Source: Cryomorphaceae bacterium
GTDB taxonomy: Bacteria; Bacteroidota; Bacteroidia; Flavobacteriales; Flavobacteriaceae
Direction of reading: 5' to 3'
DNA: 64,000 nt
Assembly (NCBI GenBank): GCA_018646865.1
Contig: JABGTW010000031.1
Coordinates: 2,106-66,105, forward strand
The notes beneath the pieces were generated by a model. It was not told the DNA's origin. It saw nothing but the letters and a program-made list of their open reading frames with translations, and searched no databases. How positions within the stretch are numbered: position 1 is the stretch's first letter; every line of letters begins with the position of its first letter. A program made the translations under genes and the position numbers. Positions 8,894-47,783 of this stretch are shown piece after piece.

Positions 8894-10433
8894 AACAGAT
8901 TCAATTGCTAAATTAAATAAATTTACTCAATGGGATGTTGTAATTATTGGCGGTGGCGCTTCAGGTCTTGGCATTGCGGTTGATGCGTCAAGAAGAGGTT
9001 ACAAAACATTACTTCTAGAAAAATATGATTTTGGGAAAGGCACATCCTCTAGAAGTACTAAACTGATTCATGGTGGAGTTAGATACTTACAAAATGGTGA
9101 TATAACATTAGTAATAGAGTCACTTAAAGAAAGAGGAATTTTAAAGAGAAATGCTCCTCATTTAGTGAAAGATTTGAGTTTTGTTATTCCAACATATGAT
9201 TGGTGGGCTAGTCCATTTTATGGAATTGGAATGAAAATTTATGATATGATGGCAGGTAAGCTTGGTCTGGGAAAATCAATAATTATTTCAAAAGAGGAAA
9301 CCGAAAAATTAATCCCTAATGTTAACAAAAAAGGATTAAGAGGGGGCGTCATATATCATGATGGACAATTTGATGATTCAAGAATGGCAATTACACTTGC
9401 ATTATCTGCTAATTCTAAAAAAACTGCCTTGATAAATTATTGTAATGTAGATGGATTAATAAAAAAAGACAATGAAATAACTGGGCTTAATTTCACCGAT
9501 TCTATTAATTCAAAAAAGTATCAAATTAATAGTAAAATAGTAATAAATGCTACAGGAGTTTTTGCAGAGGAAATAATAAGAATGGATCAGCCTAAAATCG
9601 AGAAAATGATTCAACCAAGTCAAGGTGTTCATATTGTTCTTGAGCGAAAGTTTTTAAAAAGTAAACACGCAATTTTAATTCCTCAAACTTCAGATGGAAG
9701 AGTGTTGTTTGCTGTTCCATGGAAAGATTATGTGGTTGTCGGAACTACAGACACACATGTTAAAAATGCGAGTGAAGAACCTGCACCTTTAAAGGAAGAA
9801 ATTGATTTTATTTTAAAAAATGCAAGTAAGTACATGACAATTAAGCCAAAGAGAGAAGACATTACAAGTGTTTTTGCTGGATTAAGACCTTTAGCTGCAA
9901 CATCTAATAAACAATCTACTAAAGAAGTTTCAAGAAGTCATAAGATTGATATTTCACCCTCTGGTTTAATAAGTGTATTAGGTGGCAAATGGACAACTTA
10001 TAGAAAAATTGCTGAGGATGCATTAAATACAGCAATTTCTATAAAGAAACTTAAGAAAAAAAAGTGTAGGACTGAAAGAAAAAAGCTTTATGGTTTCAAA
10101 AAAAATGTTGATTGGTCAGACCCAATGCATGTATATGGTTCATTGAAGAAAAAAGTAAAATCTCTTGGAAGTACAAGTGATAATAAATCTCTGTCAAAGA
10201 AATTTTATATTTCAAACAATATTATAGAATGGTCTATAATTCATGAAATGGCTCTTTCAGTTGAAGATGTTTTAGCAAGAAGAACAAGATGTATTTTTTT
10301 AGATTCTAAAGAGTCAAAGAGAATTGCTCCTCTTGTTGCAAAAAAAATGGCTGATGTTTTAGGAGAAGATCAAGAATGGATAGACGCTGAGTTAAAAAAA
10401 TTTAATAAATTAATAAAAAATTATATAGTATGA
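8886..10433 (+). CDS. glpD: FAD-dependent glycerol-3-phosphate dehydrogenase
   Basis: 515 aa. FAD fold VVIIGGGASGLGIAVDASRRG and SSRSTKLIHGGVRYL. Overlaps glpK by 8 nt. Confidence 0.9.
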   Translation: MNRTDSIAKLNKFTQWDVVIIGGGASGLGIAVDASRRGYKTLLLEKYDFGKGTSSRSTKLIHGGVRYLQNGDITLVIESLKERGILKRNAPHLVKDLSFVIPTYDWWASPFYGIGMKIYDMMAGKLGLGKSIIISKEETEKLIPNVNKKGLRGGVIYHDGQFDDSRMAITLALSANSKKTALINYCNVDGLIKKDNEITGLNFTDSINSKKYQINSKIVINATGVFAEEIIRMDQPKIEKMIQPSQGVHIVLERKFLKSKHAILIPQTSDGRVLFAVPWKDYVVVGTTDTHVKNASEEPAPLKEEIDFILKNASKYMTIKPKREDITSVFAGLRPLAATSNKQSTKEVSRSHKIDISPSGLISVLGGKWTTYRKIAEDALNTAISIKKLKKKKCRTERKKLYGFKKNVDWSDPMHVYGSLKKKVKSLGSTSDNKSLSKKFYISNNIIEWSIIHEMALSVEDVLARRTRCIFLDSKESKRIAPLVAKKMADVLGEDQEWIDAELKKFNKLIKNYIV

Positions 10434-11167
10434 TAAGTCCATATATTGCTGAATTTATTGGCACAACAATTCTTCTACTTCTAGGTACAGGTATTGTAGC
10501 TAATGTTAGTCTTAACAAAACAAAAGGTTCAAACCAAACACCTCTTATAACGATTACAACTGCATGGGGTTTTGCAGTATTTGTTGCTGCCTATATAACC
10601 GGTCAGTTTAGTGGTGCACATCTAAATCCTGCAGTAACAATTGGATTAGTAGTAGCTGGAAAATTCTCAACTGATTTAATGATCGGTTATATAATTGCTC
10701 AAGTTCTTGGTGCAATGCTTGGTAGTTGGTTGACTTATATATTTTATTTAGATCACTACAGGGCTACTTCAGATGAAAATGCTGTAATGGGATCATTTTG
10801 TACATCACCAGCAATAAGGAATTTTAAGAATAATTTTTTCAGTGAATTTCTCGCAACATTTATATTAATTTTCGGTATTCTTTATATAGTTAAACCTAAT
10901 ATTTTAATTGAAGGAATGGATGTGAACTTTGGAATAGGATCATTAGATGCACTTCCAGTAGGAATATTAGTTTGGGTAATTGGATTGAGTCTTGGTGGTA
11001 CAACAGGATATGCAATTAATCCTGCCAGAGATCTTGGACCAAGAATTGTGTATCAATTAATTCCTCGAAAAAATAAACTTTCAGATTGGGCGTATAGTTG
11101 GGTTCCAGTTATAGGTCCTTCGCTAGGAGCTGTAGCAGCAGGTCTCTTATTTATATATTTTAATTAA
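10430..11167 (+). CDS. glpF: aquaglyceroporin (MIP family glycerol facilitator)
   Basis: 245 aa. Two NPA boxes (HLNPAVT, INPARD). Overlaps glpD by 4 nt. Confidence 0.9.
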   Translation: MISPYIAEFIGTTILLLLGTGIVANVSLNKTKGSNQTPLITITTAWGFAVFVAAYITGQFSGAHLNPAVTIGLVVAGKFSTDLMIGYIIAQVLGAMLGSWLTYIFYLDHYRATSDENAVMGSFCTSPAIRNFKNNFFSEFLATFILIFGILYIVKPNILIEGMDVNFGIGSLDALPVGILVWVIGLSLGGTTGYAINPARDLGPRIVYQLIPRKNKLSDWAYSWVPVIGPSLGAVAAGLLFIYFN

Positions 11168-11926
11168 ATGGAAGAAACAAAAAAAATTGCACTAATTACT
11201 GGAGCAACTTCAGGAATTGGAGAGTCAACCTCTTATGAGTTAGCAAATCAATTTTCTCTTATACTATGTGGAAGAAATAGTGATAAGTTAAAAAATCTAG
11301 AGGATTCTCTATCATCAAAAACTAGAGTTAAAACTTTGCAATTTGATGTGAGAAATCAAATTGAAGTCAATGAAAAAATTTCAAGTTTAAGTGATGATTG
11401 GAAAAGTATAGATGTACTGATTAATAATGCCGGTAATGCCCATGGTTTAGATTTTATTCATGAAGGTAAAATTGAAGATTGGGATATGATGATTGATACT
11501 AATGTCAAAGGACTACTTTATGTCAGCAAACCTGTCTTAGATATAATGATAAAAAAAAATAAGGGACATATTATTAATATTGGATCAATTGCTGGAAAAG
11601 AACTTTATCCAAAAGGAAATATTTACTGTGCTTCAAAATTTGCAGTTGATGCTATCTCACAAGGAATGAGAATTGATTTAAATAAATTTAATATTAAGGT
11701 TTCACAGATTAACCCAGGATTGGTTGAAACTAATTTCTCAATGGTTAGATTTAAAAATGATCAGGATAGATCTAAGTCAGTTTATTCTGGAGTTAATCCT
11801 TTGGTTGGTGATGATGTTGCAAAAGTTATATCATACGTAATTAATTGTCCTGAGAATGTTAACATTAGTGATATTACAGTACTAGCAAAATCGCAAGCTT
11901 CTTCAACTGTCCTTAACAGAAGTTAA
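11168..11926 (+). CDS. SDR family NAD(P)-dependent oxidoreductase (YdfG-like)
   Basis: 252 aa. TGATSGIG, NNAG, YCASK. Starts immediately after the glpF stop. Confidence 0.85.
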   Translation: MEETKKIALITGATSGIGESTSYELANQFSLILCGRNSDKLKNLEDSLSSKTRVKTLQFDVRNQIEVNEKISSLSDDWKSIDVLINNAGNAHGLDFIHEGKIEDWDMMIDTNVKGLLYVSKPVLDIMIKKNKGHIINIGSIAGKELYPKGNIYCASKFAVDAISQGMRIDLNKFNIKVSQINPGLVETNFSMVRFKNDQDRSKSVYSGVNPLVGDDVAKVISYVINCPENVNISDITVLAKSQASSTVLNRS

Positions 11927-12548: not shown

Positions 12549-13310
12549 ATGAAAAAATTATTATCACCATTTTTTTTAGTATTTATTTTTCTTTTTACAA
12601 GTTGTAATAATACTTCAGATATTATTGTCATAGGTCATAGAGGAGCTATGGGCCATGCACTTGAAAACACTATTGAATCAGTTGAAAAAGCTGTTAATCT
12701 TAATGTTGATGGAATAGAAATTGATGTATTCAAATCCAAAACAGGGGAATTAATAGTTTATCATGATCCTTCATTAAAAAGGTTATCAAATTCAACTGCA
12801 TTAATAGAGGATATATCTTTAGATTCAATAAAAAAAGTTAAACTAAAAGGGGGACTAATGATTCCTATCCTTGAGGAGGTTATTGATGTTATTCCAGAAA
12901 ATATTTTTTTAAACATAGAGCTTAAGGGAAAAAACACAGCTTATGCTACTAACAAAATTATTTCAGAATATTTAACGCGTTATAATTGGCCACCATCAAA
13001 ATTTATAATATCAAGTTTTAATTGGAATGAATTAAAAAATTTTAGAAGTATTAATGCTGACGTTCCTATTGCAATTCTTGTCGACTCATTATATAAAATA
13101 GATAGTGCTATTAGACTTTCAAAGGAACTAAACGCAATATCTTTAAATCCAAACAATAAGTTCTTAACGAATGAAATTGTTAAAAAAATACACTCTAATG
13201 ATATTAAAGTTTATCCCTATACAATTAATGCTCCAGAGAATATAAAGAGAATGAAATTAATGGGAGTAGATGCAATTATAACTGATTATCCAGAAAGAAT
13301 TAATAAATAA
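12549..13310 (+). CDS. glycerophosphodiester phosphodiesterase, lipoprotein
   Basis: 253 aa. Lipobox LFTSC. GDPD motifs GHRGA..ENT, EIDV and ITDYP. Confidence 0.85.
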   Translation: MKKLLSPFFLVFIFLFTSCNNTSDIIVIGHRGAMGHALENTIESVEKAVNLNVDGIEIDVFKSKTGELIVYHDPSLKRLSNSTALIEDISLDSIKKVKLKGGLMIPILEEVIDVIPENIFLNIELKGKNTAYATNKIISEYLTRYNWPPSKFIISSFNWNELKNFRSINADVPIAILVDSLYKIDSAIRLSKELNAISLNPNNKFLTNEIVKKIHSNDIKVYPYTINAPENIKRMKLMGVDAIITDYPERINK

Positions 13311-13322
13311 AAAAGGAAAGCT

Positions 13323-14231
13323 TTATACTCTGTTTTTAGCTACCACAAAATGTTCAATTTTGAAAATATGATTTTCAGGAATGGTTCTTCCAATTGGAGT
13401 AAAATACTTAGAATTAAGATCAGCTAAGGTTTTATTTTCTATTAATGAAAACCTATTTTGAGAGAGTAAATCCTCAATTTCTTCAGCCGAGTATAATGAT
13501 ATCCATGGTTCGCCTACTTTCGCAGCTCCATAGGTTATTAATTTAGCTCGTTTTTCAGTGTTTGGATAACCCTTACCAAAACAGGCCTTTGGATCTTCTC
13601 TCAGAAGGCTATTTACATAAGACATAAAGAGTATTGCATTTGAATTTTGGGTTAAGACAGCCAGTTCATTTAAAGTTGAGTTAAGCGCTTCTCTTGTAAT
13701 ATACTGAGAAACTCCCTCAAGTGTGAATACGGTTGATTTACTTTCATCGAACCCTGCATTCAAAAGTTGTTCTTTGAGAGATTGGTGATTAAAATCAATA
13801 CTCACATAGGTCACGTTTTCTGCATTAGGTATCTCATCTGGAAGTTTAGAACGTTTTCTTTCTTGAACTTCAGGCTGATCAACTTCGAATATTTTTAATC
13901 CTGATGGTAGTTTGAGACGATGCGCTCTTGAGTCGTACCCAGCGCCTAGAATGACATATTGTTCTACCTTATCAGAGGTGCTTTTTTCAATTAGATCATC
14001 TATAAATCGTGTTCGAGAAATTAGAAGTTCATGAAATCCAGGAACGAACTTTTTACTCAACCAGACACTAAACTTATGCCCCATAAGTTTAATTATACCT
14101 GCACCAATTACAAACTTCTTAGCATAAGGATCATAAATAACACGTTTACCAGGTTTAGCAAGTGATTCAATCAATCGCTGTTTTGCAACCCCTTGAGCGG
14201 TCCCATCTTTTCTAAATATGGAGTTACTCAT
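13323..14231 (-). CDS. class I SAM-dependent methyltransferase (leucine carboxyl / O-methyltransferase-like family)
   Basis: 302 aa. VILGAGYDSR SAM-binding motif and EVDQPEV, typical of the LCM/TIGR00027-type methyltransferases. Confidence 0.75.
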   Translation of the reverse strand: MSNSIFRKDGTAQGVAKQRLIESLAKPGKRVIYDPYAKKFVIGAGIIKLMGHKFSVWLSKKFVPGFHELLISRTRFIDDLIEKSTSDKVEQYVILGAGYDSRAHRLKLPSGLKIFEVDQPEVQERKRSKLPDEIPNAENVTYVSIDFNHQSLKEQLLNAGFDESKSTVFTLEGVSQYITREALNSTLNELAVLTQNSNAILFMSYVNSLLREDPKACFGKGYPNTEKRAKLITYGAAKVGEPWISLYSAEEIEDLLSQNRFSLIENKTLADLNSKYFTPIGRTIPENHIFKIEHFVVAKNRV

Positions 14232-14297
14232 TGTGTATATTTATTAATTTCTTTATTGCTTTTATATAAACCATTTTCATTAAATTAATTAAAAAAA

Positions 14298-14975
14298 ATG
14301 AAAATCACTTTTTTAGGACATGCCTCATTAGAAATTAAAATTGATGAATTTAGTATTGTAGTTGATCCATTTATCTCTGGAAATCCTTTTGCTTCAGATG
14401 TTGATATTGATAGTTTAAAACCAGATTTTATTCTTATTACTCATGCTCATCAAGATCATATTTTAGATGTTGAAAAACTAGCTAAAGAAAATGACTCTAT
14501 TATTATTTCAAATTTTGAAATTGTCAATTATTTTCAAAACAAAGGATTAAAGGGTCATCCAATGAATCATGGTGGTAAATGGAATTTTGATTTTGGAGAA
14601 TTAAAGTATGTTAATGCAATTCATACTTCAACCTTTCCTGATGGAGAAAATGGAGGTCAGCCAGGAGGCTTTATAATCTCAGCAAATAATAAATCAATAT
14701 ACATTGCTGGAGATACTGCTTTAACTTATGATATGAAACTTATTCCACTTAAATACAATTTAGATCTTGCTGTTTTACCAATTGGAGATAATTTTACAAT
14801 GGGATATGAAGATGCAATTTTAGCTTCTGACTTTATCCAATGTGATAAAATACTAGGCTACCATTATGACACCTTCGGCTTGATTGAGATTAATGAAACT
14901 AATGCTATAGATAAGTTTAAAGAAAGAGGTAAGAATTTAATTCTATTAAAACCTTTGGAGTCGTTGGAAGTTTAA
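14298..14975 (+). CDS. metal-dependent hydrolase, MBL fold (UPF0173 family)
   Basis: 225 aa. THAHQDH metallo-beta-lactamase motif. Confidence 0.8.
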   Translation: MKITFLGHASLEIKIDEFSIVVDPFISGNPFASDVDIDSLKPDFILITHAHQDHILDVEKLAKENDSIIISNFEIVNYFQNKGLKGHPMNHGGKWNFDFGELKYVNAIHTSTFPDGENGGQPGGFIISANNKSIYIAGDTALTYDMKLIPLKYNLDLAVLPIGDNFTMGYEDAILASDFIQCDKILGYHYDTFGLIEINETNAIDKFKERGKNLILLKPLESLEV

Positions 14976-15679
14976 CTAATTAAACCAAGATCAATTTTAG
15001 ATAGATCATCTTTATTAATAATTTTAATTCTTTTTCCTTTAATGTCAATTAATTTTTTTTCCTTAAAAGACGACAGCATTCTAATACATCCTTCTTTAGA
15101 GGTACCAATCAAATCTCCTATTTCTTTTCTTTTTAAGTAAAGACTTATAAAGCCTTCTGAATCATTTCCAAATTCATTATTCAAATAAATTAAGACATGT
15201 GAAAGTCTTTGTTTAACAGACTTTTGAGCCAAGTTCACAAATTCATTATCTGATTTCTTTAGTTCATTAGATATATTTATAAGTAGTGCTTTCATGAAGC
15301 TTTTATTTTCTGAAAGTTCAAGAATCTTTTCTTTTGGAATAAAGCATAGCTCCATATCAGTTAATGCAATTGCATCTAAATTTGTGGATTCTTCAGAGAT
15401 TAATGATCTTTTACCTAGAAGTTCACCTTTACGAGCAATCTTGACAATTTGGCTATTTCCATTATCACTAATCTTTGACAATTTTGTACTACCACTTTTT
15501 ATGCAATAGACACCTTTTAACTTTTGTCCTTCAATGAATACTTGTTCTCCTTTTTTAAAACTAATTACTTGTTTAACATCAGATATTTTAGATAAATCTT
15601 CTTTATTAAGAGCATTAAAGGAATTTAATTCTCTTATAATACAGCTCTCGCACCTGATATCTAAATGATCTTTATTCAT
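14972..15679 (-). CDS. Crp/Fnr family transcriptional regulator
   Basis: 235 aa. cNMP-binding beta-roll (FKKGEQVFIEGQ, GELLG) and a C-terminal HTH (RKEIGDLIGTSKEGCIRMLSSF). Divergent from the nos operon. Confidence 0.85.
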   Translation of the reverse strand: MNKDHLDIRCESCIIRELNSFNALNKEDLSKISDVKQVISFKKGEQVFIEGQKLKGVYCIKSGSTKLSKISDNGNSQIVKIARKGELLGKRSLISEESTNLDAIALTDMELCFIPKEKILELSENKSFMKALLINISNELKKSDNEFVNLAQKSVKQRLSHVLIYLNNEFGNDSEGFISLYLKRKEIGDLIGTSKEGCIRMLSSFKEKKLIDIKGKRIKIINKDDLSKIDLGLIS

Positions 15680-15711
15680 CTAATAATAAAAGTAAACAAA
15701 ATTTTCAAAGT

Positions 15712-15725
15712 ATGATTTTTATCAT
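15712..15725. promoter_or_regulatory. FNR/CRP-type palindromic operator ATGAT-N4-ATCAT
   Basis: ATGATTTTTATCAT has perfect 5-bp arms containing the TGAT-N4-ATCA core of the FNR consensus TTGAT-N4-ATCAA. Its centre lies 29.5 nt upstream of the -7 box at 15748. Confidence 0.55.
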
Positions 15726-15747
15726 CTTTTAAATTAAAATCATACTT

Positions 15748-15755
15748 TAATTTTG
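15748..15755 (+). promoter_or_regulatory. Bacteroidota-type -7 promoter box (TAnnTTTG) for the nos operon
   Basis: TAATTTTG is an exact match to TAnnTTTG, 30 nt upstream of the cytochrome c ATG. Confidence 0.45.
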
Positions 15756-15785
15756 TCTTATAAAATTCATAAACAAATCTAAATT

Positions 15786-16292
15786 ATGATCAAATCTTTA
15801 AAATTATTAGTATGCTTATTGCTATTTGTTGGTTGTGGAAATAGCCAGTCAAATGAAAAGGAAAAGTTCTCATATGAAAGAACAAAAAAAGATAAAAAAG
15901 AAAATGTTGTTGTCAATCATGATAATCATGATATTAAAGCTTCTGTTATGGTAGACCTTGTAAATAAAGGTGTTGGACCCATTAAAGAAATAAGTTTTGA
16001 TAATGAAATAAATCCACAATTGGTAAGTTCTGGAGAGGAAATTTTTAGTAAGATGTGTTCTGCTTGTCATAAAGTAGGTAAAAAATTTATTGGTCCAAAG
16101 CCAAATAAAATTTTTGATAGAAGAACTCCAGAATGGGTAATGAATATGATATTAAATCCTGAAGAAATGGTCAATAATGATCCTATTGCAAAAAAATTAC
16201 TTGTTGAATTTAATGGTGCTCCAATGGCAAATCAAAATTTAACAGAGGATGAAGCTAGAGCAGTTGTTGAGTATTTCAGAACATTAAATTAA
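15786..16292 (+). CDS. mono-haem c-type cytochrome, lipoprotein (nos-associated)
   Basis: 168 aa. Lipobox LFVGC, haem motif CSACH, distal Met in GAPMANQ. First gene of the nos operon. Confidence 0.85.
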   Translation: MIKSLKLLVCLLLFVGCGNSQSNEKEKFSYERTKKDKKENVVVNHDNHDIKASVMVDLVNKGVGPIKEISFDNEINPQLVSSGEEIFSKMCSACHKVGKKFIGPKPNKIFDRRTPEWVMNMILNPEEMVNNDPIAKKLLVEFNGAPMANQNLTEDEARAVVEYFRTLN

Positions 16293-16298
16293 TTATAT

Positions 16299-16883
16299 AT
16301 GAAAGGTAAATCAATTTCTTTTATTCTAATTTTTTTCTTCACCGTAGCTGTATTAAGTATTTACTTAATGAGAACAAATGAAAAAATAAATAATGAAAAT
16401 AAAATATCAACTACAGATTCAGATAAAATAATTGCTGAAGGTGTTAATGGGCAAGCATTTATCGAAGATTCTTCGGAAATGAATACTGTACTCCATGTCG
16501 CTATTAATTCCAAAGATCATTCCACTTTAGTTCTAGCTGTTCAAGCTGCTGAACTTGAAAACTCTTTGGTAAATGCTGGCCCTTTAACTGTTTTTGCTCC
16601 AACTAATGAAGCTTTTGATGAACTTCCACCTAATACAGTTTCTAGTTTGTTAGAAAGAGAAAACATAGATAAACTAGCATTTATATTAAAGCACCATGTA
16701 ACACCTGGAAATTACTCTAAGGATTTCATTAAAAAATTTAAAAAACTTGGACAAGCAAGTAATGAAAATGTACCTGTTGAGGTTAAAGGAGATGACGTTT
16801 ATATAGGGGGAGCCAAAATTATTGCATCCGTTAAAGCCTCTAATGGCACAGTTCACATAGTAGATAAAGTTATTCTTCCATAA
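16299..16883 (+). CDS. fasciclin (FAS1) domain protein, membrane-anchored
   Basis: 194 aa with an N-terminal TM helix. FAS1 motifs LTVFAPTNEAF and NGTVHIVDKVILP. Confidence 0.85.
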   Translation: MKGKSISFILIFFFTVAVLSIYLMRTNEKINNENKISTTDSDKIIAEGVNGQAFIEDSSEMNTVLHVAINSKDHSTLVLAVQAAELENSLVNAGPLTVFAPTNEAFDELPPNTVSSLLERENIDKLAFILKHHVTPGNYSKDFIKKFKKLGQASNENVPVEVKGDDVYIGGAKIIASVKASNGTVHIVDKVILP

Positions 16884-17464
16884 TGAGTTATATAGGTGGT
16901 ATACTTCCAGATATTAATATTAACTCTGTAAATCATAAATCAGAGGAGGAAATTTTTAATTTTTCAAATAATAATATTAAAACTTTACTGTTCTGGTATC
17001 CTAAAGACTTTACATTTGTTTGTCCTACTGAAATTCATGCTTTTCAAGAAAAATTATCTGAGTTTATAAAAAGAGGTTACCGTGTTATAGGAGCCTCGTG
17101 TGATACAATACAGATTCATTTAGAATGGCTAAAAACTTCAAAAAAAAATGCAGGTATAGAGGGTATTACATTTCCCTTAATTTCAGATCCAAGAAGAACG
17201 TTATCTAAAAAACTCAAAATTTTGGGCAAAGATAATGTTACGTACCGAGCAACTTATCTTATTGACGAAAACAACTTAGTTTATTATGAATCTATTAATG
17301 AAATGTCAATAGGAAGAAATATAGATGAGCTTTTAAGAATCATAGATGCTAAAATTCATCATGATTTAAATGGAGAAGTGTGTCCAGCTAATTGGATTTT
17401 AGGCAAAAAAGCTCTTAAAGAATCAACAGAAAGTGTAAAAAAATATTTTTCAAACTTAAAGTAA
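16883..17464 (+). CDS. typical 2-Cys peroxiredoxin (AhpC/Prx1 type), no signal peptide
   Basis: 193 aa. Peroxidatic FVCPTE and resolving EVCPANW motifs. The start overlaps the fasciclin stop (TAATG). Confidence 0.9.
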   Translation: MSYIGGILPDININSVNHKSEEEIFNFSNNNIKTLLFWYPKDFTFVCPTEIHAFQEKLSEFIKRGYRVIGASCDTIQIHLEWLKTSKKNAGIEGITFPLISDPRRTLSKKLKILGKDNVTYRATYLIDENNLVYYESINEMSIGRNIDELLRIIDAKIHHDLNGEVCPANWILGKKALKESTESVKKYFSNLK

Positions 17465-17469
17465 ATCTT

Positions 17470-19419
17470 ATGAAACATTATATTAAAAAATCATTATTAA
17501 TTTTCTTATCGATGTTAGTTTTTTCGGCTTGTAATAATTTATCAATAAATGAAAGTACTCTACCATCAAGTGCCGCAGAAAAAGTGTATGTTCCACCAGG
17601 AGAACATGATGAATTTTATGCTTTTTTATCAGGCGGGTTTAGTGGTCAATTATCAGTTTATGGTTTGCCCTCTGGAAGATTATTTAAAATAATTCCTGTT
17701 TTTTCCGTCGATGCTGAAAAGGGATATGGATTCAATGAAGAAACTAAAGACTTGTTAAATACTTCATTTGGTAGAATACCATGGGGAGATTCTCATCATC
17801 CAGATATATCTCAAACAAATGGTAAGTTAGACGGAAGATGGATTTTTATTAATGAAAATAATACACCTAGAATCGGTAAAATTGATTTATCAGTTTTTGA
17901 GACAACAGAGACTATTGAAATTCCAAATACAGCTGGTAATCATAGCTCCTCATATGTTACAGAAAACACAGAATATGTTATCGCAGGAACCAGGTTTTCT
18001 ATTCCAGTTCCTCAAAGAGATATGCCAATTGATGAGTACAAAGGAAACTTCAAAGGTGTATTGTCATTTCTAGAAGTTGATTCAGAAGATGGTGAAATGG
18101 ACTTGTCTTTTCAAATAATGATGCCAGGATTTAATTATGATAAGGCACATCCTGGAAGAGGTAAATCTCATGGCTGGTTTTTCTATACAACTTATAATAC
18201 CGAGGAAGCAAATTCATTACTTGAAGTGAATGCATCTCAAAATGATAAAGATTTTATTGCGGCAGTTAATTGGAAAAAAGCAGAAGAATACATAAAGCAG
18301 GGTAAGTTTAAAACAATGAAGACTAATTATGCCCATAATAAATATGATGAATCTACTCATACAGCTAAGACAGAGTGGGTAAAAGAAGTTAAAGTACTTG
18401 ATCCTGCTGAATTACCAGGTCTTGTATATTTTTTACCAACTCCAAAATCTCCTCATGGTTGTGATGTAGATCCATCAGGAGAATATATTGTTGGAAGTGG
18501 TAAGCTATCATCAGATGTAACAGTTCACTCTTTTTCTAAAATGATAAATGCTATTGAAGAAGAAAATTTTTCTGGTGAAGCTTATGGAATTCCTATTTTA
18601 AATTTTGAAGCAGTTCATGCTGGAAGTGTTAAGCAGTCTGGTCTAGGCCCCTTACATACAGAATTTGATAACAAGGGTAATGCATATACCTCTTTCTTTA
18701 TTTCATCAGAGGTAGTTAAATGGAAATTAGGGACATGGGAGGTATTAGACAGAAAACCATCATTTTATTCAGTAGGACATCTAATGATTCCTGGCGGTAA
18801 TTCTGGTGAACCTTTTGGAAAATATGCTTTAGCAATGAATAAAATTACTAAAGATAGATATTTGCCAACAGGACCTGAGGTAACTCAGTCTGCACAGCTA
18901 TATGACATTACAGGAAGTAAAATGGAACTTTTGCTAGATTTTCCAACTGTAGGTGAACCTCATTATGCTGCTGGAATTCCTGCAGAACTTGTTAAGCCAA
19001 GATCAAAAAAAATATTTAAACTTGAAGATAATAAACATGAATATGCAACACTCTCCGAAAGAGACACTAAAGTAGTGAGAAACGGAAAAGAAGTTCATAT
19101 TTATATGACCACTATTAGAAGTCATTTTTCACCTGATAATATTGAGGGAATAAAGGTGGGAGACAAAGTTTATTTCCATATCACCAACCTCGAACAGGAC
19201 TATGACGTTCCCCATGGAGTTGCAATGATAGGAGCAAATACTTCGGAAGTTTTAATTATGCCCGGTCAAACTGAAACATTTATTTGGGAGCCAAAAAAAG
19301 TAGGTGTATGGCCTTTTTATTGTACTGACTTTTGTTCTGCACTTCATCAAGAAATGCAAGGATATGTTAGGGTTTCACCTAAAAATTCAAGTATAAAACT
19401 TTCTTGGTCACTAGATTAA
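17470..19419 (+). CDS. nosZ: nitrous-oxide reductase, Sec-dependent (clade II)
   Basis: 649 aa. Lipoprotein-type Sec signal (LSMLVFSAC) with no twin-arginine. C-terminal CuA site DVPHGV...CTDFCSALHQEM. Followed by nosL/D/F/Y. Confidence 0.95.
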   Translation: MKHYIKKSLLIFLSMLVFSACNNLSINESTLPSSAAEKVYVPPGEHDEFYAFLSGGFSGQLSVYGLPSGRLFKIIPVFSVDAEKGYGFNEETKDLLNTSFGRIPWGDSHHPDISQTNGKLDGRWIFINENNTPRIGKIDLSVFETTETIEIPNTAGNHSSSYVTENTEYVIAGTRFSIPVPQRDMPIDEYKGNFKGVLSFLEVDSEDGEMDLSFQIMMPGFNYDKAHPGRGKSHGWFFYTTYNTEEANSLLEVNASQNDKDFIAAVNWKKAEEYIKQGKFKTMKTNYAHNKYDESTHTAKTEWVKEVKVLDPAELPGLVYFLPTPKSPHGCDVDPSGEYIVGSGKLSSDVTVHSFSKMINAIEEENFSGEAYGIPILNFEAVHAGSVKQSGLGPLHTEFDNKGNAYTSFFISSEVVKWKLGTWEVLDRKPSFYSVGHLMIPGGNSGEPFGKYALAMNKITKDRYLPTGPEVTQSAQLYDITGSKMELLLDFPTVGEPHYAAGIPAELVKPRSKKIFKLEDNKHEYATLSERDTKVVRNGKEVHIYMTTIRSHFSPDNIEGIKVGDKVYFHITNLEQDYDVPHGVAMIGANTSEVLIMPGQTETFIWEPKKVGVWPFYCTDFCSALHQEMQGYVRVSPKNSSIKLSWSLD

Positions 19420-19435
19420 TCTAAAAAATATTAAA

Positions 19436-20041
19436 ATGAGAGCTTTTTTTCATAATGCTAGAGTAATTATGTTTATTGCTGCAGTTTTACCGCTAGCTGT
19501 TTTTATATTTCCTATCTGGAATGTAACACTTGAGGCACCGCAATACCCAACACCCTTAGGTATAAATATTCATATAAATGATTTTTCTGATGTAAATCCA
19601 CATGATATAAAAAACATAAATCTTTTGAATCATTATATTGGAATGAAGTATATTCCAGATGCGATTCCAGAATTTAAAATTTTTCCATGGGGAATAATCT
19701 TGACATCAATTTTAGGTATTGTCATTTCTCTAAAATTTGAAAATAAATACTTTTTATACTGGTTTATTTTAATGTGCTTATTGAGTGCAGCAGGTCTGTT
19801 TGATTTCTACCTGTGGGAACATGATTATGGATATAACCTAGACTCAAAGGCTATACTTAAATTTACAAATGCAGATGGAACAGCTTTGGCATATCAACCT
19901 CCTGTGTTTGGAACAAAACAAGTATTAAATTTTACAGTTCATTCATATCCAAGATTAGGAGCATATTTTTTAGGATTTGGAATTATTCTATCACTTTACG
20001 CATTTAAACTTTCTAAAAATCTAAAATTAGATGTTAAATAA
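19436..20041 (+). CDS. nos-cluster integral membrane protein (tentatively NosB-like)
   Basis: 201 aa with about 4 TM helices. Its position directly after nosZ matches that of the clade-II-specific membrane gene. Identity is by position only. Confidence 0.55.
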   Translation: MRAFFHNARVIMFIAAVLPLAVFIFPIWNVTLEAPQYPTPLGINIHINDFSDVNPHDIKNINLLNHYIGMKYIPDAIPEFKIFPWGIILTSILGIVISLKFENKYFLYWFILMCLLSAAGLFDFYLWEHDYGYNLDSKAILKFTNADGTALAYQPPVFGTKQVLNFTVHSYPRLGAYFLGFGIILSLYAFKLSKNLKLDVK

Positions 20042-20486
20042 ACTCCATTTAATTGGTTTAATTTTTTTATTTATCTCGTGTAACTTTTCACCAGAACCTA
20101 TAAATTATGGGGTAGATGAATGTAATTATTGTAAAATGATTATAGTTGATAACGCTCATTCTTCGGAGATTTTTACAAATAAAGGTAAATCTTATAAGTT
20201 TGATTCAATAGAATGTATGGTAAATTACTTACATGAAAATCATGATACTGATTATGTTCAAAAACCTGATAAAACTTTAATATTAGTCAGTAATTTTAAT
20301 TCGCCGGGGAGTATGCTCAATGTTACAAATGCAAAATTCCTCATAAGTGAAAAAATATCAAGTCCTATGGGAGCAAATTTATCAGCTTTCACTTCAATTA
20401 AAGAAATTTTAGAAATAGACAATAATGCTCAAATATTAGACTGGAATACTCTAGTTGAGAACTTTAGAAATTTAATTCAAAATTAA
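20031..20486 (+). CDS. nosL: copper chaperone lipoprotein NosL
   Basis: 151 aa. Lipobox LFISC and the CNYCKM motif characteristic of NosL. Confidence 0.8.
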   Translation: MLNKLHLIGLIFLFISCNFSPEPINYGVDECNYCKMIIVDNAHSSEIFTNKGKSYKFDSIECMVNYLHENHDTDYVQKPDKTLILVSNFNSPGSMLNVTNAKFLISEKISSPMGANLSAFTSIKEILEIDNNAQILDWNTLVENFRNLIQN

Positions 20487-20490
20487 ATTA

Positions 20491-21744
20491 ATGGTACTTA
20501 ATGAAGTTATAATATCGAAGTCTAAATTATTATTTCTAATACTTTTATGGAGCTGTTTTATCAACTCGCAAACTATTGATGTTTGTAAGACTTGTAATTT
20601 CAAAACAATTAAGAAAGCAATTAAGTTTTCAAGTATAAATGATACAATATTTATACAAAAAGGAACATATAAAGAGTCTGATATTGAAATTAATAAACCA
20701 CTAATTATTATTGGAAATGACCGTCCAATAATAGATGGTGAATATGAAGGAGAGATTTTTAATATAAAATCAGACGATGTTATAATTAAAGGACTTAAAA
20801 TAGTCAATGTTGGTAAAAGCTACATAAAAGATTATGCTGCAATCAGAGTAATAAAAGCTAAAAACTTTAATATTTCTGATAATATTTTTGATAATCTTTT
20901 TTTTGGAATTTATATTGAAAAATCAAGTCATGGAGTCATTTATAATAATAAAATTTATGGTAATTCAAAAGAAGAGTATAGTTCAGGAAATGGAATACAA
21001 TTGTGGTACTCAAACGACATCTTGGTTTCAAATAATTATGTTACTGGAGTAAGAGATGGAATTTATCTTGAGTTTTCAGATAACTGTAAGATTATTTCAA
21101 ATACTAGTCATAATAATTTAAGGTATGGATTACACTTTATGTTTTCAGATAATGACATATATGAGAAAAATAGTTTCGTGGATAATGGAGCGGGTGTTGC
21201 TGTTATGTTTTCAAAACAAATTAACATGAATGATAATTTATTTAAAGATAATTGGGGTACAGCATCTTATGGTTTACTGCTTAAAGAAATAAATGATTCA
21301 AATATCACAAATAATATTTTTGATAAAAATACTACAGCAGTAAATATAGAGGGATCCAATAGATTAATTTTTAAGCATAATAACTTCACTAATAATGGTT
21401 GGGCAATTAAGGTAAGAGGTGCGTGTTACGCTAATAATTTTACTTATAATAATTTTATTTTTAATTCGTTTGATCTTTCTTATAATAGTTCAGTTAACGA
21501 TAATATTTTTGAAAATAATTATTGGAGTAGCTATAATGGATATGACCTAGATAATGATGGATATGGAGATGTTCCATACAGACCAGTCAAATTATTTACT
21601 TATATAGTTAATACTGTACCCGAAACTGTAGTTCTTCTAAGAGGTTTATTTGTACATATAATTAATTTTTCCGAAAAAGTTTCTCCTGTGTTTACTCCAA
21701 AAAAATTACTAGATCAAAATCCTCTAATGAATATTATAAGATGA
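20491..21744 (+). CDS. nosD: periplasmic beta-helix protein NosD
   Basis: 417 aa with a signal peptide. Many parallel beta-helix repeats (NNxIxGN-type). Overlaps nosF. Confidence 0.9.
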   Translation: MVLNEVIISKSKLLFLILLWSCFINSQTIDVCKTCNFKTIKKAIKFSSINDTIFIQKGTYKESDIEINKPLIIIGNDRPIIDGEYEGEIFNIKSDDVIIKGLKIVNVGKSYIKDYAAIRVIKAKNFNISDNIFDNLFFGIYIEKSSHGVIYNNKIYGNSKEEYSSGNGIQLWYSNDILVSNNYVTGVRDGIYLEFSDNCKIISNTSHNNLRYGLHFMFSDNDIYEKNSFVDNGAGVAVMFSKQINMNDNLFKDNWGTASYGLLLKEINDSNITNNIFDKNTTAVNIEGSNRLIFKHNNFTNNGWAIKVRGACYANNFTYNNFIFNSFDLSYNSSVNDNIFENNYWSSYNGYDLDNDGYGDVPYRPVKLFTYIVNTVPETVVLLRGLFVHIINFSEKVSPVFTPKKLLDQNPLMNIIR

Positions 21745-22475
21745 TACGTATAGAAAACTTACATAAAAATTTTAAGGAAAACATAGTCCTAAATGATATA
21801 GATTTAAAAGTTAAACCTAATAATGTTACTACAATAGTTGGACCTAATGGATCAGGTAAAACAACAATCATTAAATGTATTCTGGGAATGCTAATCCCTA
21901 AAAGAGGGAAAATTTATATAGATAATATAAATATTTCCAAGTCTCACACATATAGAAACTATATTACTTATTTACCTCAAGTTGAAAGCTTTCCTCCAAA
22001 TCTAAAGGTTCATGAACTTCTTGACATGATAAAAAATTTAAGAAATAATGACATTAGTTATCTTTCATTAGTCAATCATTTTAATTTAAAACAATATTTA
22101 CAACATAGAACTTCAACTTTATCTAAAGGAACTAGACAAAAAATCAATCTAGTAATTACTTTTATGTTTGATTGCCCAATTATTATTTTAGACGAGCCTA
22201 CTGCTGGTCTTGATCCAATTTCAGTAATTAAATTAAAAGAACTAATAGATATTGAAAAGAAAAAAGGTAAAACAATTCTTATTACATCGCATATCATGAG
22301 TTTTATTGATGAGGTTTCTAGTGAGATAATTTTGCTATCTGAGGGTCAGATTTTTTATAATGGATCAATTAAAAAATTGAAAAAAAATATTGTAAAGAAC
22401 AGGAATAATAAAAAATCTTATTTAACTGATTTAGAATATGCATTAACAAAAATAATTGATGAAAAAAATGTTTAA
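21741..22475 (+). CDS. nosF: ABC transporter ATP-binding protein NosF
   Basis: 244 aa. Walker A GPNGSGKTT, signature LSKGTRQK, Walker B IIILDEP. Confidence 0.85.
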   Translation: MIRIENLHKNFKENIVLNDIDLKVKPNNVTTIVGPNGSGKTTIIKCILGMLIPKRGKIYIDNINISKSHTYRNYITYLPQVESFPPNLKVHELLDMIKNLRNNDISYLSLVNHFNLKQYLQHRTSTLSKGTRQKINLVITFMFDCPIIILDEPTAGLDPISVIKLKELIDIEKKKGKTILITSHIMSFIDEVSSEIILLSEGQIFYNGSIKKLKKNIVKNRNNKKSYLTDLEYALTKIIDEKNV

Positions 22476-23250
22476 AATTCTAAAATATTGTTTATCTGAT
22501 TTGATGAGAAGTCATTGGATACTTTTTTATTTTTTGTTTTATCTTCTTATTGGATTTGGATTATTACTCATAAATACAAGTTTTTCAAATACAATTATTA
22601 CTTTATTAAATATTATAATTGTTTTATCTCCTTTAATTTCATCTGTATTTGGCATAACATATTTTTATAATTCTAAAAACTTCACTCAACTATTATTAGC
22701 TCAACCAATTGATAGAAAAAAGATTTTTATTGCACAATACCTGGGAGTATCATTTTCTTTATCATTGAGTTTGATTTTAGGTTTATCAATCCCTTTTATC
22801 CTTTTCGGTATTTTAAGTTCACAAAATTTATATGAGTTTATATTATTACTGGGAATATCTTCAGTTTTGACATTTATATTCTCTTGTATATCATTCTACA
22901 TAGGTATTTTAAACAACAATAAACTAAGGGGGTTTGGATTAACTGTTGTTGTATGGCTAATTATGGCAGTTGTTTATGATGGATTAATAATGATTTTGTT
23001 AATGATATTTAGAGAATATCCCTTAACGAATCCTTCATTAATTGCTATGCTACTTAACCCAATAGATTTAGCAAGAACAGTATTGATAATTAATCTAGAT
23101 TTATCTGCACTTTTGGGATATACAGGAGCAAGTTTTAAATTATTTTTTGGAACATTTTATGGAATTATTATTTGCACAATATCCCTTTTAATTTGGTTAT
23201 TCATCCCTTTGACACTTTTAATTAGAAGAATTGAGAATAAAGATTTCTAA
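22456..23250 (+). CDS. nosY: ABC-2 type permease NosY
   Basis: 264 aa with about 6 TM helices. Overlaps nosF by 20 nt. Confidence 0.8.
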   Translation: MMKKMFKILKYCLSDLMRSHWILFYFLFYLLIGFGLLLINTSFSNTIITLLNIIIVLSPLISSVFGITYFYNSKNFTQLLLAQPIDRKKIFIAQYLGVSFSLSLSLILGLSIPFILFGILSSQNLYEFILLLGISSVLTFIFSCISFYIGILNNNKLRGFGLTVVVWLIMAVVYDGLIMILLMIFREYPLTNPSLIAMLLNPIDLARTVLIINLDLSALLGYTGASFKLFFGTFYGIIICTISLLIWLFIPLTLLIRRIENKDF

Positions 23251-23534
23251 ATGGCAAGATTTAATATAATTACAATAATATTATAAACTAGGCTAGTTAT
23301 AATTAAATTGAAAATTATTTTATAAGATTGAACTGATAATACAGCAGCATTATAAATACTACATATAAATACTGCAATTCCTATTTGAATCCAATTAATT
23401 AAATTATATCCATTCATCATTATCACCATAACAGCAATTGATCCCACTAGAGTTGAAATCACAATACCTATAGAAGAATTAAATCTATAATTATCTCTGA
23501 AAGCTAACTTGACACTATTATATTTATTAATCAT
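23247..23534 (-). CDS. small 3-TM membrane protein (unknown function)
   Basis: 95 aa from the ATG at 23534 (a GTG lies at 23537). Three hydrophobic helices. Its 3' end overlaps the nosY stop by 4 nt. Its start overlaps the stop of the upstream Cys-rich small ORF. Confidence 0.55.
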   Translation of the reverse strand: MINKYNSVKLAFRDNYRFNSSIGIVISTLVGSIAVMVIMMNGYNLINWIQIGIAVFICSIYNAAVLSVQSYKIIFNLIITSLVYNIIVIILNLAI

Positions 23535-23646
23535 CACAATTTTTATTATTATGTTTTTTAACTGAAGAACATGTTTTGTGTTTCTTATCTAAAGATTTGT
23601 CTTTGCATTTTTTGCCTGAAGAACAGGACTTACATTTCTTATTCAT
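23527..23646 (-). CDS. candidate 39-aa Cys/Lys-rich small protein (not in the ORF track)
   Basis: My translation is MNKKCKSCSSGKKCKDKSLDKKHKTCSSVKKHNNKNCDD*. It has 5 Cys and 13 Lys, with an internal repeat K[ST]CSS[GV]KK. It overlaps the downstream ATG by 8 nt. It is preceded by a promoter module shared with the nos operon. Confidence 0.4.
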   Translation of the reverse strand: MNKKCKSCSSGKKCKDKSLDKKHKTCSSVKKHNNKNCDD

Positions 23647-23667
23647 TTTTATTGACTTTATAATGAA

Positions 23668-23675
23668 TAAAATTA
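23668..23675 (-). promoter_or_regulatory. -7-like promoter box TAATTTTA (minus strand)
   Basis: Differs from the nos -7 box TAATTTTG only at the last base. It has the same 18-nt spacer after the operator module, and lies 21 nt upstream of the small-ORF ATG. Confidence 0.4.
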
Positions 23676-23697
23676 TGCTTAAAGACTAAGATGAAAG

Positions 23698-23711
23698 ATG
23701 ATAATAATCAT
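23698..23711. promoter_or_regulatory. second FNR/CRP-type operator ATGAT-N4-ATCAT
   Basis: ATGATAATAATCAT, sitting inside the 16-bp palindrome GATGATAATAATCATC. On the minus strand the 18-mer ATGATTATTATCATCTTT is 17/18 identical to the nos promoter copy. Confidence 0.5.
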
Positions 23712-23748: not shown

Positions 23749-24051
23749 ATGAGAATTATATATTTTATATTATGCGTTTTAGGAATTGCGTTACCTTATT
23801 ACAATTTGATCAATTTTCTTAAAGTTAATAATTGGTCAATGGATGGTTTTTTCAGTCTTTTATATGAAAATTATGCTGTATCAATGTTGTCAATGGATTT
23901 AACTGTAGCTGCTAGCTCTTTTTTAATTTTCTTAATTTATAAAAACAGAAAATCTCCTTTGAAAATTTTTAGATATTTAGTTCCAATGTTTTTAGTAGGA
24001 TTTTCTTTAGCATTGCCTTTATATCTTTATGACAATCATGATTCTAACTAG
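23749..24051 (+). CDS. DUF2834-like small membrane protein
   Basis: 100 aa with 3 TM helices. The pattern LPYYNLINFL...SLALPLYLY resembles DUF2834 family members as I remember them. Confidence 0.5.
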   Translation: MRIIYFILCVLGIALPYYNLINFLKVNNWSMDGFFSLLYENYAVSMLSMDLTVAASSFLIFLIYKNRKSPLKIFRYLVPMFLVGFSLALPLYLYDNHDSN

Positions 24052-30063: not shown

Positions 30064-31275
30064 CTAAATAAACCTAGTCAAAATATACCCAAGTGCAAAA
30101 AAGGTAAGAAATAAAATACCTATTATACTCAGAATTCTCAGAGCTTTGGAGGGTTTATGTGATTCAGGCATATTTTTACTCATTATCAATTTATAATTTA
30201 AAATTGCATAAAAAGGGGCTGTTATAAAAGATAATATAGTAGCTAATTCAACTAATGCTCCCATTTCAGAGAGTAAAAAATAAAATATTAACATTGTACC
30301 TACTGCCAAAGCAGATATCCACTGAAAATAATAATTTTTGTTATTATTCGTTAATAGTTGTGTAGCTCTAGACATTGTCCTTGGCGATGCATCTAGGCAT
30401 GTGATGGTTGTGCTTAGCATTGTAGTAAATGCACAAATTGAAATTATTAAATAAAAACTATCACCCAAGTTAGATGTATATAATTCAATAAGTTGATTAG
30501 CAAAAATACCTCCACTATTTGAAAAACTTATGCCAGAGTTATACATTACTAGTGCACCTAAACTAACAAAACAAACACCTAAAATAACAGTTGCAAAATA
30601 TCCTACATTGAAATCAAATAAACTTTCTTTTGGAGTTATTTTTTGATTCTTTTTTTTCTCAAGAGTCCATAAAGAATGCCAAATTGAAATATCAAGGGGG
30701 GCAGGCATCCATCCCATAAATGCTACTAAAAAAACCAAACCACTTCCTGTTGGAAATATTTGTTTAAAGCTATAAACCTCCTGAGCATTTATTGACGCAA
30801 CTCCAGTTGAAAATAGTGTGCTAATTGCTAAAATTAAGATTATGACTTTTATCATTTTATCTAAAACCTTGTATTTGCCAAGTAATAATATCCCATAGCA
30901 AATAATGGTAATTATAAGACTCCAAATAACCATATTGTCAGTTACTCCAAAAAGACTGGAAGCAAGCCCAGCTGTTACTATTGTAACCGCTGTTTGAATA
31001 GTAAACATTGTTGCTAAATTTAAAATGAAGTAAGTAATTAAAAACACTTTACCAACCTTGTAATATCCATCAAGTAAACTTTCACCAGTTGCCATAGCAT
31101 ATCTGGGGCCATATTGAAAAAAAGGATATTTAAAAATATTAACTAGTATTAAAGCCCAAATTAAACCCCAACCAAAGTCAGCTCCCGCTCGAGTTGATTG
31201 AACTAGGTGGGATACTCCAATTGCAGCTCCTGCAAAAAGTAAACCTGGTCCAAGTTTGGAAATTATTTTAATCAT
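30064..31275 (-). CDS. Nramp family divalent metal (Mn2+/Fe2+) transporter
   Basis: 403 aa with about 11 TM helices. The N-terminal GPGLLFAGAAIGVSHLVQSTRAGA resembles the Nramp/MntH signature region. Lies 9 nt upstream of lipA. Confidence 0.8.
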   Translation of the reverse strand: MIKIISKLGPGLLFAGAAIGVSHLVQSTRAGADFGWGLIWALILVNIFKYPFFQYGPRYAMATGESLLDGYYKVGKVFLITYFILNLATMFTIQTAVTIVTAGLASSLFGVTDNMVIWSLIITIICYGILLLGKYKVLDKMIKVIILILAISTLFSTGVASINAQEVYSFKQIFPTGSGLVFLVAFMGWMPAPLDISIWHSLWTLEKKKNQKITPKESLFDFNVGYFATVILGVCFVSLGALVMYNSGISFSNSGGIFANQLIELYTSNLGDSFYLIISICAFTTMLSTTITCLDASPRTMSRATQLLTNNNKNYYFQWISALAVGTMLIFYFLLSEMGALVELATILSFITAPFYAILNYKLIMSKNMPESHKPSKALRILSIIGILFLTFFALGYILTRFI

Positions 31276-33950: not shown

Positions 33951-34032
33951 GCGGGTGTGGTGAAATTGGTAGACACGCTAGACTTAGGATCTAGTGCCTA
34001 ACAGCTTGGGGGTTCGAGTCCCTTCACCCGCA
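33951..34032 (+). tRNA. tRNA-Leu (anticodon TAG)
   Basis: Cloverleaf read by eye. Acceptor stem GCGGGTG/CACCCGC plus discriminator A. Anticodon stem CTAGA/TCTAG with loop CTTAGGA. Long variable arm. T-loop GGTTCGAGTCC. No encoded CCA. Confidence 0.9.
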
Positions 34033-47675: not shown

Positions 47676-47680
47676 TATAG

Positions 47681-47783
47681 AACAGAGGAAGGATTTGACT
47701 GATTGCAACCTCTTAAAAAAATTGCTAAAGCAGTAATTCTTTTTACTCGCAATCTTTCATTCTATTTCTCACAAATTTATTTT
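47681..47783 (+). promoter_or_regulatory. structured metK 5' leader; candidate SAM-responsive pseudoknot riboswitch (SAM-II/SAM-V-like, class unresolved)
   Basis: P1 AGAGG (47684-88) pairs with CCTCT (47709-13). Loop GCAA (47705-08) can pair with the 3' tail TTGC (47722-25), which is preceded by an A7 tract and followed by TAAAGC. An alternative helix is GATTGC (47701-06) with GCAATC (47749-54). The leader sits in front of metK-metY-metX. Confidence 0.35.

Follow-up and report, generated by a model that had tools for sequence, protein, structure and literature searches.

The stretch of DNA considered here, called the window below, is 64,000 nucleotides long, has a G+C content of ~30% and carries a nine-gene nos operon starting with a cytochrome c gene. 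A gene encoding a Crp/Fnr-family regulator, the only one of its kind in the window, lies upstream of this operon on the opposite strand. Beyond the last nos gene, two small genes on the minus strand face the operon. They are o39, a Cys/Lys-rich small ORF, and o96, encoding a membrane protein with three transmembrane (3-TM) helices; divergent from them is a DUF2834 gene. Within the nos operon, neither the 201-aa ORF after nosZ (19436-20041) nor the gene taken as nosY (22456-23250) has a match in Pfam or NCBIfam, and all 80 nos loci have conserved counterparts of both, at 46-77% and 47-62% identity, respectively. nosY and o96 converge and share 4 nt at their stop codons (23247-23250). A generic sigma-70 promoter and terminator scan, uninformative for this phylum, gave no terminator-like hairpin between them, and the operons on the nosY and o96 sides, for which joint induction is predicted, would be transcribed into each other. 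The coordinates of the main features are collected in Table 1.

Table 1. Genes and promoter elements around the two palindrome modules of the window.
Feature	Coordinates	Strand	Basis or remark
Crp/Fnr-family regulator gene (fnr), 235 aa	14972..15679	-	Pfam cNMP_binding and HTH_Crp_2
First-copy operator palindrome ATGATTTTTATCAT	15712..15725	+	nos operon promoter
First-copy 18-mer ATGATTTTTATCATCTTT	15712-15729	+	
-7 box TAATTTTG, nos promoter	15748..15755	+	22 nt 3' of palindrome
nos operon: cytochrome c, fasciclin, peroxiredoxin, nosZ, 201-aa ORF, nosL, nosD, nosF, nosY	15786..23250	+	
Cytochrome c gene	15786-16292	+	
nosZ, Sec-type (clade II)	17470-19419	+	
o96, 3-TM membrane protein gene	23247..23537	-	likely ATG at 23534, giving 95 aa
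o39, 39-codon Cys/Lys-rich ORF MNKKCKSCSSGKKCKDKSLDKKHKTCSSVKKHNNKNCDD	23527..23646	-	stop overlaps o96 start
-7 box TAATTTTA, o39-o96 promoter	23668..23675	-	TAnnTTTG type, last G replaced by A; 22 nt 3' of palindrome
CTTT operator flank, second copy	23694..23697	-	position counts, 70 independent sites
Second-copy 18-mer ATGATTATTATCATCTTT	23711..23694	-	
Second-copy operator palindrome ATGATTATTATCAT	23698..23711	-	exact pattern search
DUF2834 gene	23749-24051	+	divergent from second module

The two intergenic regions flanking the nos cluster each contain one exact ATGAT-N4-ATCAT palindrome, as stated in a first-pass annotation of this DNA, and the identity of their 18-mers at 17 of 18 positions was reproduced from the sequence together with the coordinates. 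Both palindromes are followed by CTTT, a stretch of 18 nt and then TAATTTT[G/A], that is, TAATTTTG before the nos operon and TAATTTTA before o39. The 29.5 nt given earlier as the distance between the centre of the palindrome and the box, counted to its first base, hold at both copies. Rfam has no match at the locus; the only gathering-level matches in the window are a SAM-II riboswitch at 47679-47738 (79.9 bits) and a tRNA at 33951-34032.

Because the -7 box TAnnTTTG recognized with sigma-A occupies positions -12 to -5 in the transcription start site map of Flavobacterium psychrophilum (PMC9723704) and the spacer here is 22 nt, each palindrome would span -48 to -35 with its centre at -41.5. 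The predicted transcription start sites are near 23663 on the minus strand for o39-o96 and near 15760 on the plus strand for the nos operon. The nos box fits TAnnTTTG and the o39 box ends in A, a base found at this position in 11 of the 70 sites, taken from outside the lineages A-C described below, from which a position weight matrix (PWM) was built; the other 59 have G. The matrix consensus is aaAT-ATGAT-N4-ATCAT-aTTT, its flanks being conserved as aaAT...aTTT around a core that is invariant by construction in these sites. The upstream -33 element (TTTG/TTG, ~19 nt 5' of the -7 box) is absent from both promoters, where only a G-less CTTT/aTTT is found at -34 to -31. The T-run at about -33 to -31 doubles as the symmetric flank of the operator. 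Indeed, the CTTT of the second copy agrees with the consensus flank aTTT and is similar to a G-less -33 element. A promoter devoid of its upstream element is expected to need an activator, and a centre at -41.5 is the class II position of CRP and FNR activators. Both window sites contain an inverted repeat of 5+4+5 bp with a TGA-N6-TCA core. The canonical FNR half-site TTGAT is not found, the outer base being A at both sites; the search pattern used for other loci fixed ATGA, so that those loci are uninformative on the outer base. From sequence comparison, the module thus described appears to be a Flavobacteriia version of the FNR box, placed as in class II promoters.

Spacing was counted over 1.75 Mb comprising the window and the comparison loci, in which 129 palindromes of the form ATGAY-N4-RTCAT occur. 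Counting the cases in which TAnnTTTR follows, 83 have the box at 22 nt, 14 at 23 nt and 5 at 21 nt, with 0-3 at each other distance between 14 and 30 nt, and the spacing between palindrome and box is apparently under selection. The module also precedes the first gene of the nos operon in 56 of the 77 other flavobacterial-type nosZ loci (counted if no more than 400 nt upstream of that gene, with at most 2 mismatches to ATGAT-N4-ATCAT and a TAnnTTT box after it). Spacings of 21-23 nt were allowed in this count, and all 56 modules have 22.

Besides nos operons, the module is found before genes for Rrf2 regulators divergent from nos, universal stress proteins (usp), a HemN-type radical-SAM coproporphyrinogen oxidase, the S30AE ribosome hibernation factor, a NorC-like cytochrome c and MoeA. 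Such a gene make-up is that of the low-oxygen or anaerobic regulon of FNR-type regulators. Because it stands before hemN, usp, hibernation-factor, Rrf2 and cytochrome c genes as well, the box would be that of a low-oxygen-type regulon. In five loci (L003 at 8707, L007 at 8780, L011 at 8697, L023 at 3353 and L077 at 8799), a single palindrome has a -7 box at 22 nt in either direction and would serve the nos operon in one direction and an Rrf2-family regulator gene in the other. Rrf2 itself thus appears to be a target of the box.

For comparison across lineages, 80 loci were collected via NosZ and further loci via the o96 protein. Loci carrying both o96 and the regulator fall into lineage A (the window and the near-identical L082-L085), lineage B (L081, with a regulator 77% identical) and lineage C (L001 and L086-L089, with regulators 57-59% identical). 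In all three, the small ORF is preceded by the palindrome, exactly 22 nt and TAATTTTA, and the nos operon or its remains, where present, by the palindrome, 22 nt and TAATTTTG. The second-copy palindrome is a perfect ATGAT-N4-ATCAT in L081, L001 and L086-L089 too, and the sole imperfect one among the modules of the three lineages is ATGATATTTCTCAT in the nos promoter of L001. The sequence of the 22-nt spacer diverges freely between lineages. The modules at both operons can be taken as real because the palindrome, the 22 nt and TAATTTT[G/A] were kept while the spacers diverged.

These comparisons support the second copy as a genuine operator and promoter module with a regulator in common with the nos operon, and the element at 23668-23711 is very probably a functional regulatory promoter for o39-o96. 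The duplication of the module is borne out in orthologous loci, both operons carrying it wherever lineages A and C keep nos genes or their remains. The co-regulation of the small ORF and the 3-TM gene with N2O reductase by the adjacent Crp/Fnr protein, put forward in the first-pass annotation, is upheld in part. Conservation in three lineages and the gene order of L081 indicate a module directed at these two genes and a regulator common with nos, whereas a box private to nos does not hold, as other genes have it as well.

The L081 locus has no nos genes. Its module precedes the small ORF, o96 (10001-10288) and fnr (10322-11032) as one unit. Read on its minus strand, the window shows the same order of o39, o96 and fnr with an antisense nos operon between o96 and fnr (14972-23646 of the window against 9827-11032 of L081 and 9694-12131 of L086). 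The nos cluster of the window is thus nested inside the unit, because these genes are contiguous in the nos-less L081. In L086, all that is left between o96 and fnr is the peroxiredoxin gene with a short ORF that may be a fasciclin remnant, and the box is kept. The nos cluster therefore seems, from gene order, to be nested in an older unit and to behave as a cassette that can be inserted or deleted. In addition, L081 contains a one-mismatch site at 11900 with TAACTTTG at 22 nt, directed towards an HSP20 gene.

A separate ~1-kb segment of the window (13284-14304), containing a gene of the leucine carboxyl methyltransferase family (13323-14231, minus strand), shares 94% DNA identity with loci of lineage C (L001 16308-17338, L086, L088 and L089), where it is placed instead between o96 and DUF2834 and where the flanking genes show only 55-76% protein identity. 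The sister genome L082 lacks both this segment and the neighbouring metallo-beta-lactamase-fold gene (14298-14975). The segment looks like a recently transferred cassette.

Neither product of the putative target operon, o39 or o96, matches a curated family in Pfam or NCBIfam. The small ORF is kept at 34-42 codons in the three lineages, always rich in Cys and Lys and always overlapping the o96 start, and its sequences are barely alignable between lineages. Within lineage A, versions of o39 differ by 4-5 nonsynonymous and 0 synonymous changes, with one Cys lost, and its product may be unimportant given that only nonsynonymous differences are found. L087 has an in-frame 3-nt deletion. In L086, the small ORF is partly duplicated (9738-10000), with a truncated copy (MDNISPFCNCF...) after the promoter and a full copy ~100 nt beyond it, 5' of o96.

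The ORF o39 may encode a small protein that is composition-driven, or it may serve o96 as a translated leader. In the latter case, the promoter would be real, and the only role of o39 would be to load ribosomes onto the 3-TM gene, with no functional protein made. The Bacteroidota are a phylum without Shine-Dalgarno sites. The overlap of stop and start in all lineages, the poorly conserved amino-acid sequence, the excess of nonsynonymous changes including the lost Cys, and distant o96 homologues that leave no room for such an ORF agree with a leader, whereas the Cys/Lys-rich composition recurring in three otherwise dissimilar versions and the frame preserved by the L087 indel argue for a protein. 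A pure leader is therefore a possibility to be taken seriously, although we do not consider it the probable one, and the promoter assignment is common to both readings.

The o96 protein is modelled by AF2 with a pLDDT of 86.5 as a short N-terminal helix and three long helices, and this fold has no Foldseek match in the PDB at E <= 0.001. The family is small, with 37 representatives at 50% identity in 1.84 billion proteins, and the named sources among 290 word-index matches are all Flavobacteriia. A profile HMM found no o96-family gene in the other 78 nos loci, and the adjacency of nos and o96 is thus lineage-specific. Among seven distant members, six adjoin a Crp-family gene (Aequorivita, Gelidibacter, Flavobacterium, Spongiimicrobium, Xanthomarina and a Confluentibacter-like contig), and the seventh, from Flavivirga, is just downstream of an Rrf2-led gene cluster, beside an H-NOX system. 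The neighbouring Crp protein is 195-198 aa long, has no N-terminal Cys and a helix RVETVIR, and is ~20% identical to the regulator type of the window. The distant o96 genes have ATGA-N6-TCAT (GTGA once) ~70 nt upstream of their ATG and, at a spacing of 22-23 nt, a -7-like box, so that the palindrome is nearly always at -41.5 or -42.5. In four of these loci (L091, L092, L095 and L096, with the o96 homologue at 8001 or 5001, from Aequorivita, Gelidibacter, Xanthomarina and a related contig), the divergent 195-aa Crp-family gene is upstream of this homologue; downstream come a gene for a conserved, unannotated protein (128-134 aa) and a fused ResB/CcsA gene for cytochrome c biogenesis.

It can be speculated that the 3-TM family, accompanied here by the Cys-rich ORF, acts as a partner specific to the ATGAT-box Crp/Fnr regulators of Flavobacteriia, perhaps as a membrane-located modulator or signal input. 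The idea comes from three features, namely that o96 adjoins a Crp/Fnr gene in six of the seven distant genera, in L081 and, with nos nested between them, in the window, that the partnering regulators form two subfamilies only ~20% identical, and that the o96 gene is nearly always behind a box at -41.5 or -42.5. We nevertheless regard such a partnership as rather improbable.

The regulator has PF00027 (4e-19) and PF13545 (2.3e-13) domains, and its best NCBIfam model is Fnr, at 98.8 bits and thus under the 228-bit cut-off. Among solved structures, the best match is a Porphyromonas gingivalis Crp/Fnr protein and the next is FNR of Aliivibrio fischeri, the alignment with which starts at residue 8 and takes in the N-terminal cysteine region. 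Residues C10, C13 and C112 align with C20, C23 and C122 of Escherichia coli FNR, the position of C29 being occupied by Asn. Orthologues with 47-58% identity are present in Leeuwenhoekiella, Mesonia, Nonlabens, Winogradskyella, Mangrovimonas, Tamlana, Flavobacterium and others; 17 of them, drawn from many genera, share C10, C13, C59, C112 and a recognition helix of the form E..IR without exception. The protein thus appears to belong to an FNR subfamily spread throughout the Flavobacteriia and characterized by four invariant cysteines and an E..IR helix. In E. coli FNR, this helix reads E..SR, and its serine (Ser212) contacts the outer T of TTGAT; the change from Ser to Ile would go with the A in ATGAT. 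The four cysteines suggest an Fe-S sensor with one ligand at a different position. Ligand sets can vary, as in the Fnr of Bacillus, which uses three Cys and one Asp. The adjacent regulator is probably the main binder of both operators, and low oxygen would, on balance, be the signal. The nos-side box may also act on fnr itself, and on the minus strand of the window the -7-like sequence TACTTTTA lies 17 nt from the palindrome, not 22.

The box alone does not name the paralogue that binds it, because the shorter Crp protein adjoins o96 homologues with nearly the same box. A functional box might accordingly be bound mainly by another Crp/Fnr paralogue encoded elsewhere, sensing for example NO or a metabolite, with the adjacent gene either not being the regulator or sharing the sites. 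Most of the 56 nos loci with the box have no FNR homologue within 10 kb, and the short 195-aa type, with its helix RVETVIR and no N-terminal Cys, is encoded beside o96 homologues that follow ATGA-N6-TCAT. This reading is unlikely, however, as the adjacent gene has kept its linkage to the boxes in three lineages (in L081 it follows o96 after 34 nt, in the same orientation) and the window contains no other Crp/Fnr gene. Moreover, its orthologues across the Flavobacteriia can serve loci that lack a neighbouring regulator. The adjacent FNR-type protein is thus retained as the probable binder.

With the palindrome centre 44.5 nt from the DUF2834 ATG, control in both directions had also been suggested. 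Indeed, the L081 palindrome has two -7-like boxes at 22 nt, one on each strand; one faces the small ORF and the other, TACTTTTA, a usp gene, and two-way use therefore exists elsewhere. The plus-strand 8-mer found at 22 nt in the window, TAAAAAAA, is no -7 box. In lineage C, a methyltransferase gene stands between the module and DUF2834, the module staying with the small-ORF operon. These observations do not support the two-way proposal for the window, although the site could still hinder a putative DUF2834 promoter. The fixed -41.5 position and the missing -33 TTG fit activation, and it is thus very improbable that the site is a repressor operator or a bidirectional element also controlling DUF2834. 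Activation of o39-o96 remains the preferred function.

The motif was searched for over the whole window. ATGAT-N4-ATCAT occurs exactly twice, compared with a mean of 0.30 in dinucleotide shuffles; 3 of 100 shuffles reach two copies. The full module ATGAT-N4-ATCAT-N22-TAATTTT, with at most one mismatch, has two matches in the window and 0 in 100 shuffles. No further copy of the 18-mer was found with up to 2 mismatches, and two matches with 3 mismatches are at chance level. The many copies inside coding regions that had been named as the mark of a mere AT-rich word did not turn up. The exact and mismatch searches gave only a relaxed palindrome ATGAY-N4-RTCAT, ATGACTTTTATCAT at 30842-30855 (19.0 bits with the PWM, whose match starts at 30838), which has no promoter geometry, no -7 box being found at 22 nt from it. 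It sits within an Nramp-like gene (30064-31275, minus strand) and may be due to chance or be a non-promoter binding site. With the same matrix, the nos site scores 19.4 bits and the o39 site 12.4, maxima in shuffles being 7-15. Taken by sequence alone, the o39 operator is marginal, and its support lies in geometry and conservation. The notion that the two copies are a coincidence of AT-rich words, which might appeal to the low G+C content and to the few shuffles with two bare palindromes, deserves practically no credit beside the full module absent from all shuffles, the conservation across lineages and the sharp preference for 22 nt, and is already refuted by the comparative data.

Class II FNR promoters of Proteobacteria have TTGAT-N4-ATCAA at -41.5, as for E. 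coli FNR, ANR, FnrP and FnrL. The present module shares with them a 14-bp inverted repeat with a TGA-N6-TCA core, its predicted centre at -41.5 and an activator site in place of the upstream promoter element, and the genes behind it (hemN, usp, cytochrome c genes, nos) are also those of proteobacterial FNR regulons. The half-site is nevertheless ATGAT instead of TTGAT, and the promoter is of the Bacteroidota sigma-A type with -7 TAnnTTTG instead of -10 and -35 elements. In the same way, the regulator resembles E. coli FNR in its Crp/Fnr fold, N-terminal C-x2-C and central Cys, whereas its recognition helix differs (E..IR instead of E..SR), the C29 equivalent is missing and C59 is an extra invariant cysteine.

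That FNR or FixK proteins control nos is well established in Proteobacteria; for example, nosRZDFYLX is under FixK2, of the FNR type, in Bradyrhizobium diazoefficiens (PMC5582078). This system, like those of other clade I denitrifiers, has in common with the present one a Crp/Fnr activator, a palindromic box before nos and coupling to low oxygen. It differs in being an alphaproteobacterial clade I nos system with NosR, in which FixK2 has no Fe-S cluster and acts downstream of FixLJ, whereas the clade II (Sec-type) nos operon of the window has no nosR and a sensor-type regulator encoded alongside. For the campylobacterium Nitrosophilus labii, one of the few studies on the transcriptional control of clade II nosZ proposes Crp/Fnr regulators, the evidence being a negative correlation in transcriptomes (PMC11539149). 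Neither "binding motif" nor "palindrom" is used in its text, which does include a section on predicted regulator binding sites (PMC11539149). A metagenome survey of marine Bacteroidota scaffolds listed Rrf2 and Crp/Fnr genes near clade II nos clusters of flavobacterial type and described no sites (PMC6264515). The Rrf2 genes divergent from the nos operons in L003, L007, L011, L023 and L077 are similar to this arrangement, and in the intergenic regions there the FNR-type box is combined with a -7 box on either strand. The o39-o96 operon, conserved alongside the regulator, is a further difference from the known systems. No described Flavobacteriia FNR box or nos operator was found in the literature searched, which is not proof of unpublished status. 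The kind of mechanism, class II activation by FNR, is already known and not surprising in principle; the box variant and the target operon are undescribed.

Taken together, the minus-strand element at 23668-23711 would be a promoter of class II that depends on an FNR-type activator. The neighbouring FNR protein, of the Flavobacteriia type, would bind as a dimer to ATGAT-N4-ATCAT, centred 41.5 bp before the predicted start and overlapping the place of the missing -33 element, and would recruit RNA polymerase to the -7 box TAATTTTA. The resulting transcript would comprise the 39-codon Cys/Lys-rich ORF translationally coupled to the gene for the 95-aa three-helix membrane protein. The identical arrangement at 15712-15755 would drive the nos operon. 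Because both units have this same arrangement, they would be switched on together, the most likely signal being low oxygen perceived through an Fe-S cluster on the four invariant cysteines. We hold this combined mechanism to be likely as a whole, its start site, the adjacent protein as binder, an activating and not a repressing role, and the signal being deduced from sequence.

The control of clade II N2O reductase is poorly understood. Marine Flavobacteriia are among the many non-denitrifying N2O consumers that carry this clade. A single box of fixed geometry before most flavobacterial nos operons, together with a matching FNR subfamily, offers a testable model in which N2O would be consumed at low oxygen. 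The box may also serve as a signature by which the low-oxygen regulon can be predicted from genome and metagenome sequences. Finally, an unstudied gene pair, the Cys-rich small ORF and the 3-TM protein, appears to travel with the regulator, and the nos cluster would be a cassette that can be nested in the o96/fnr unit or lost from it.
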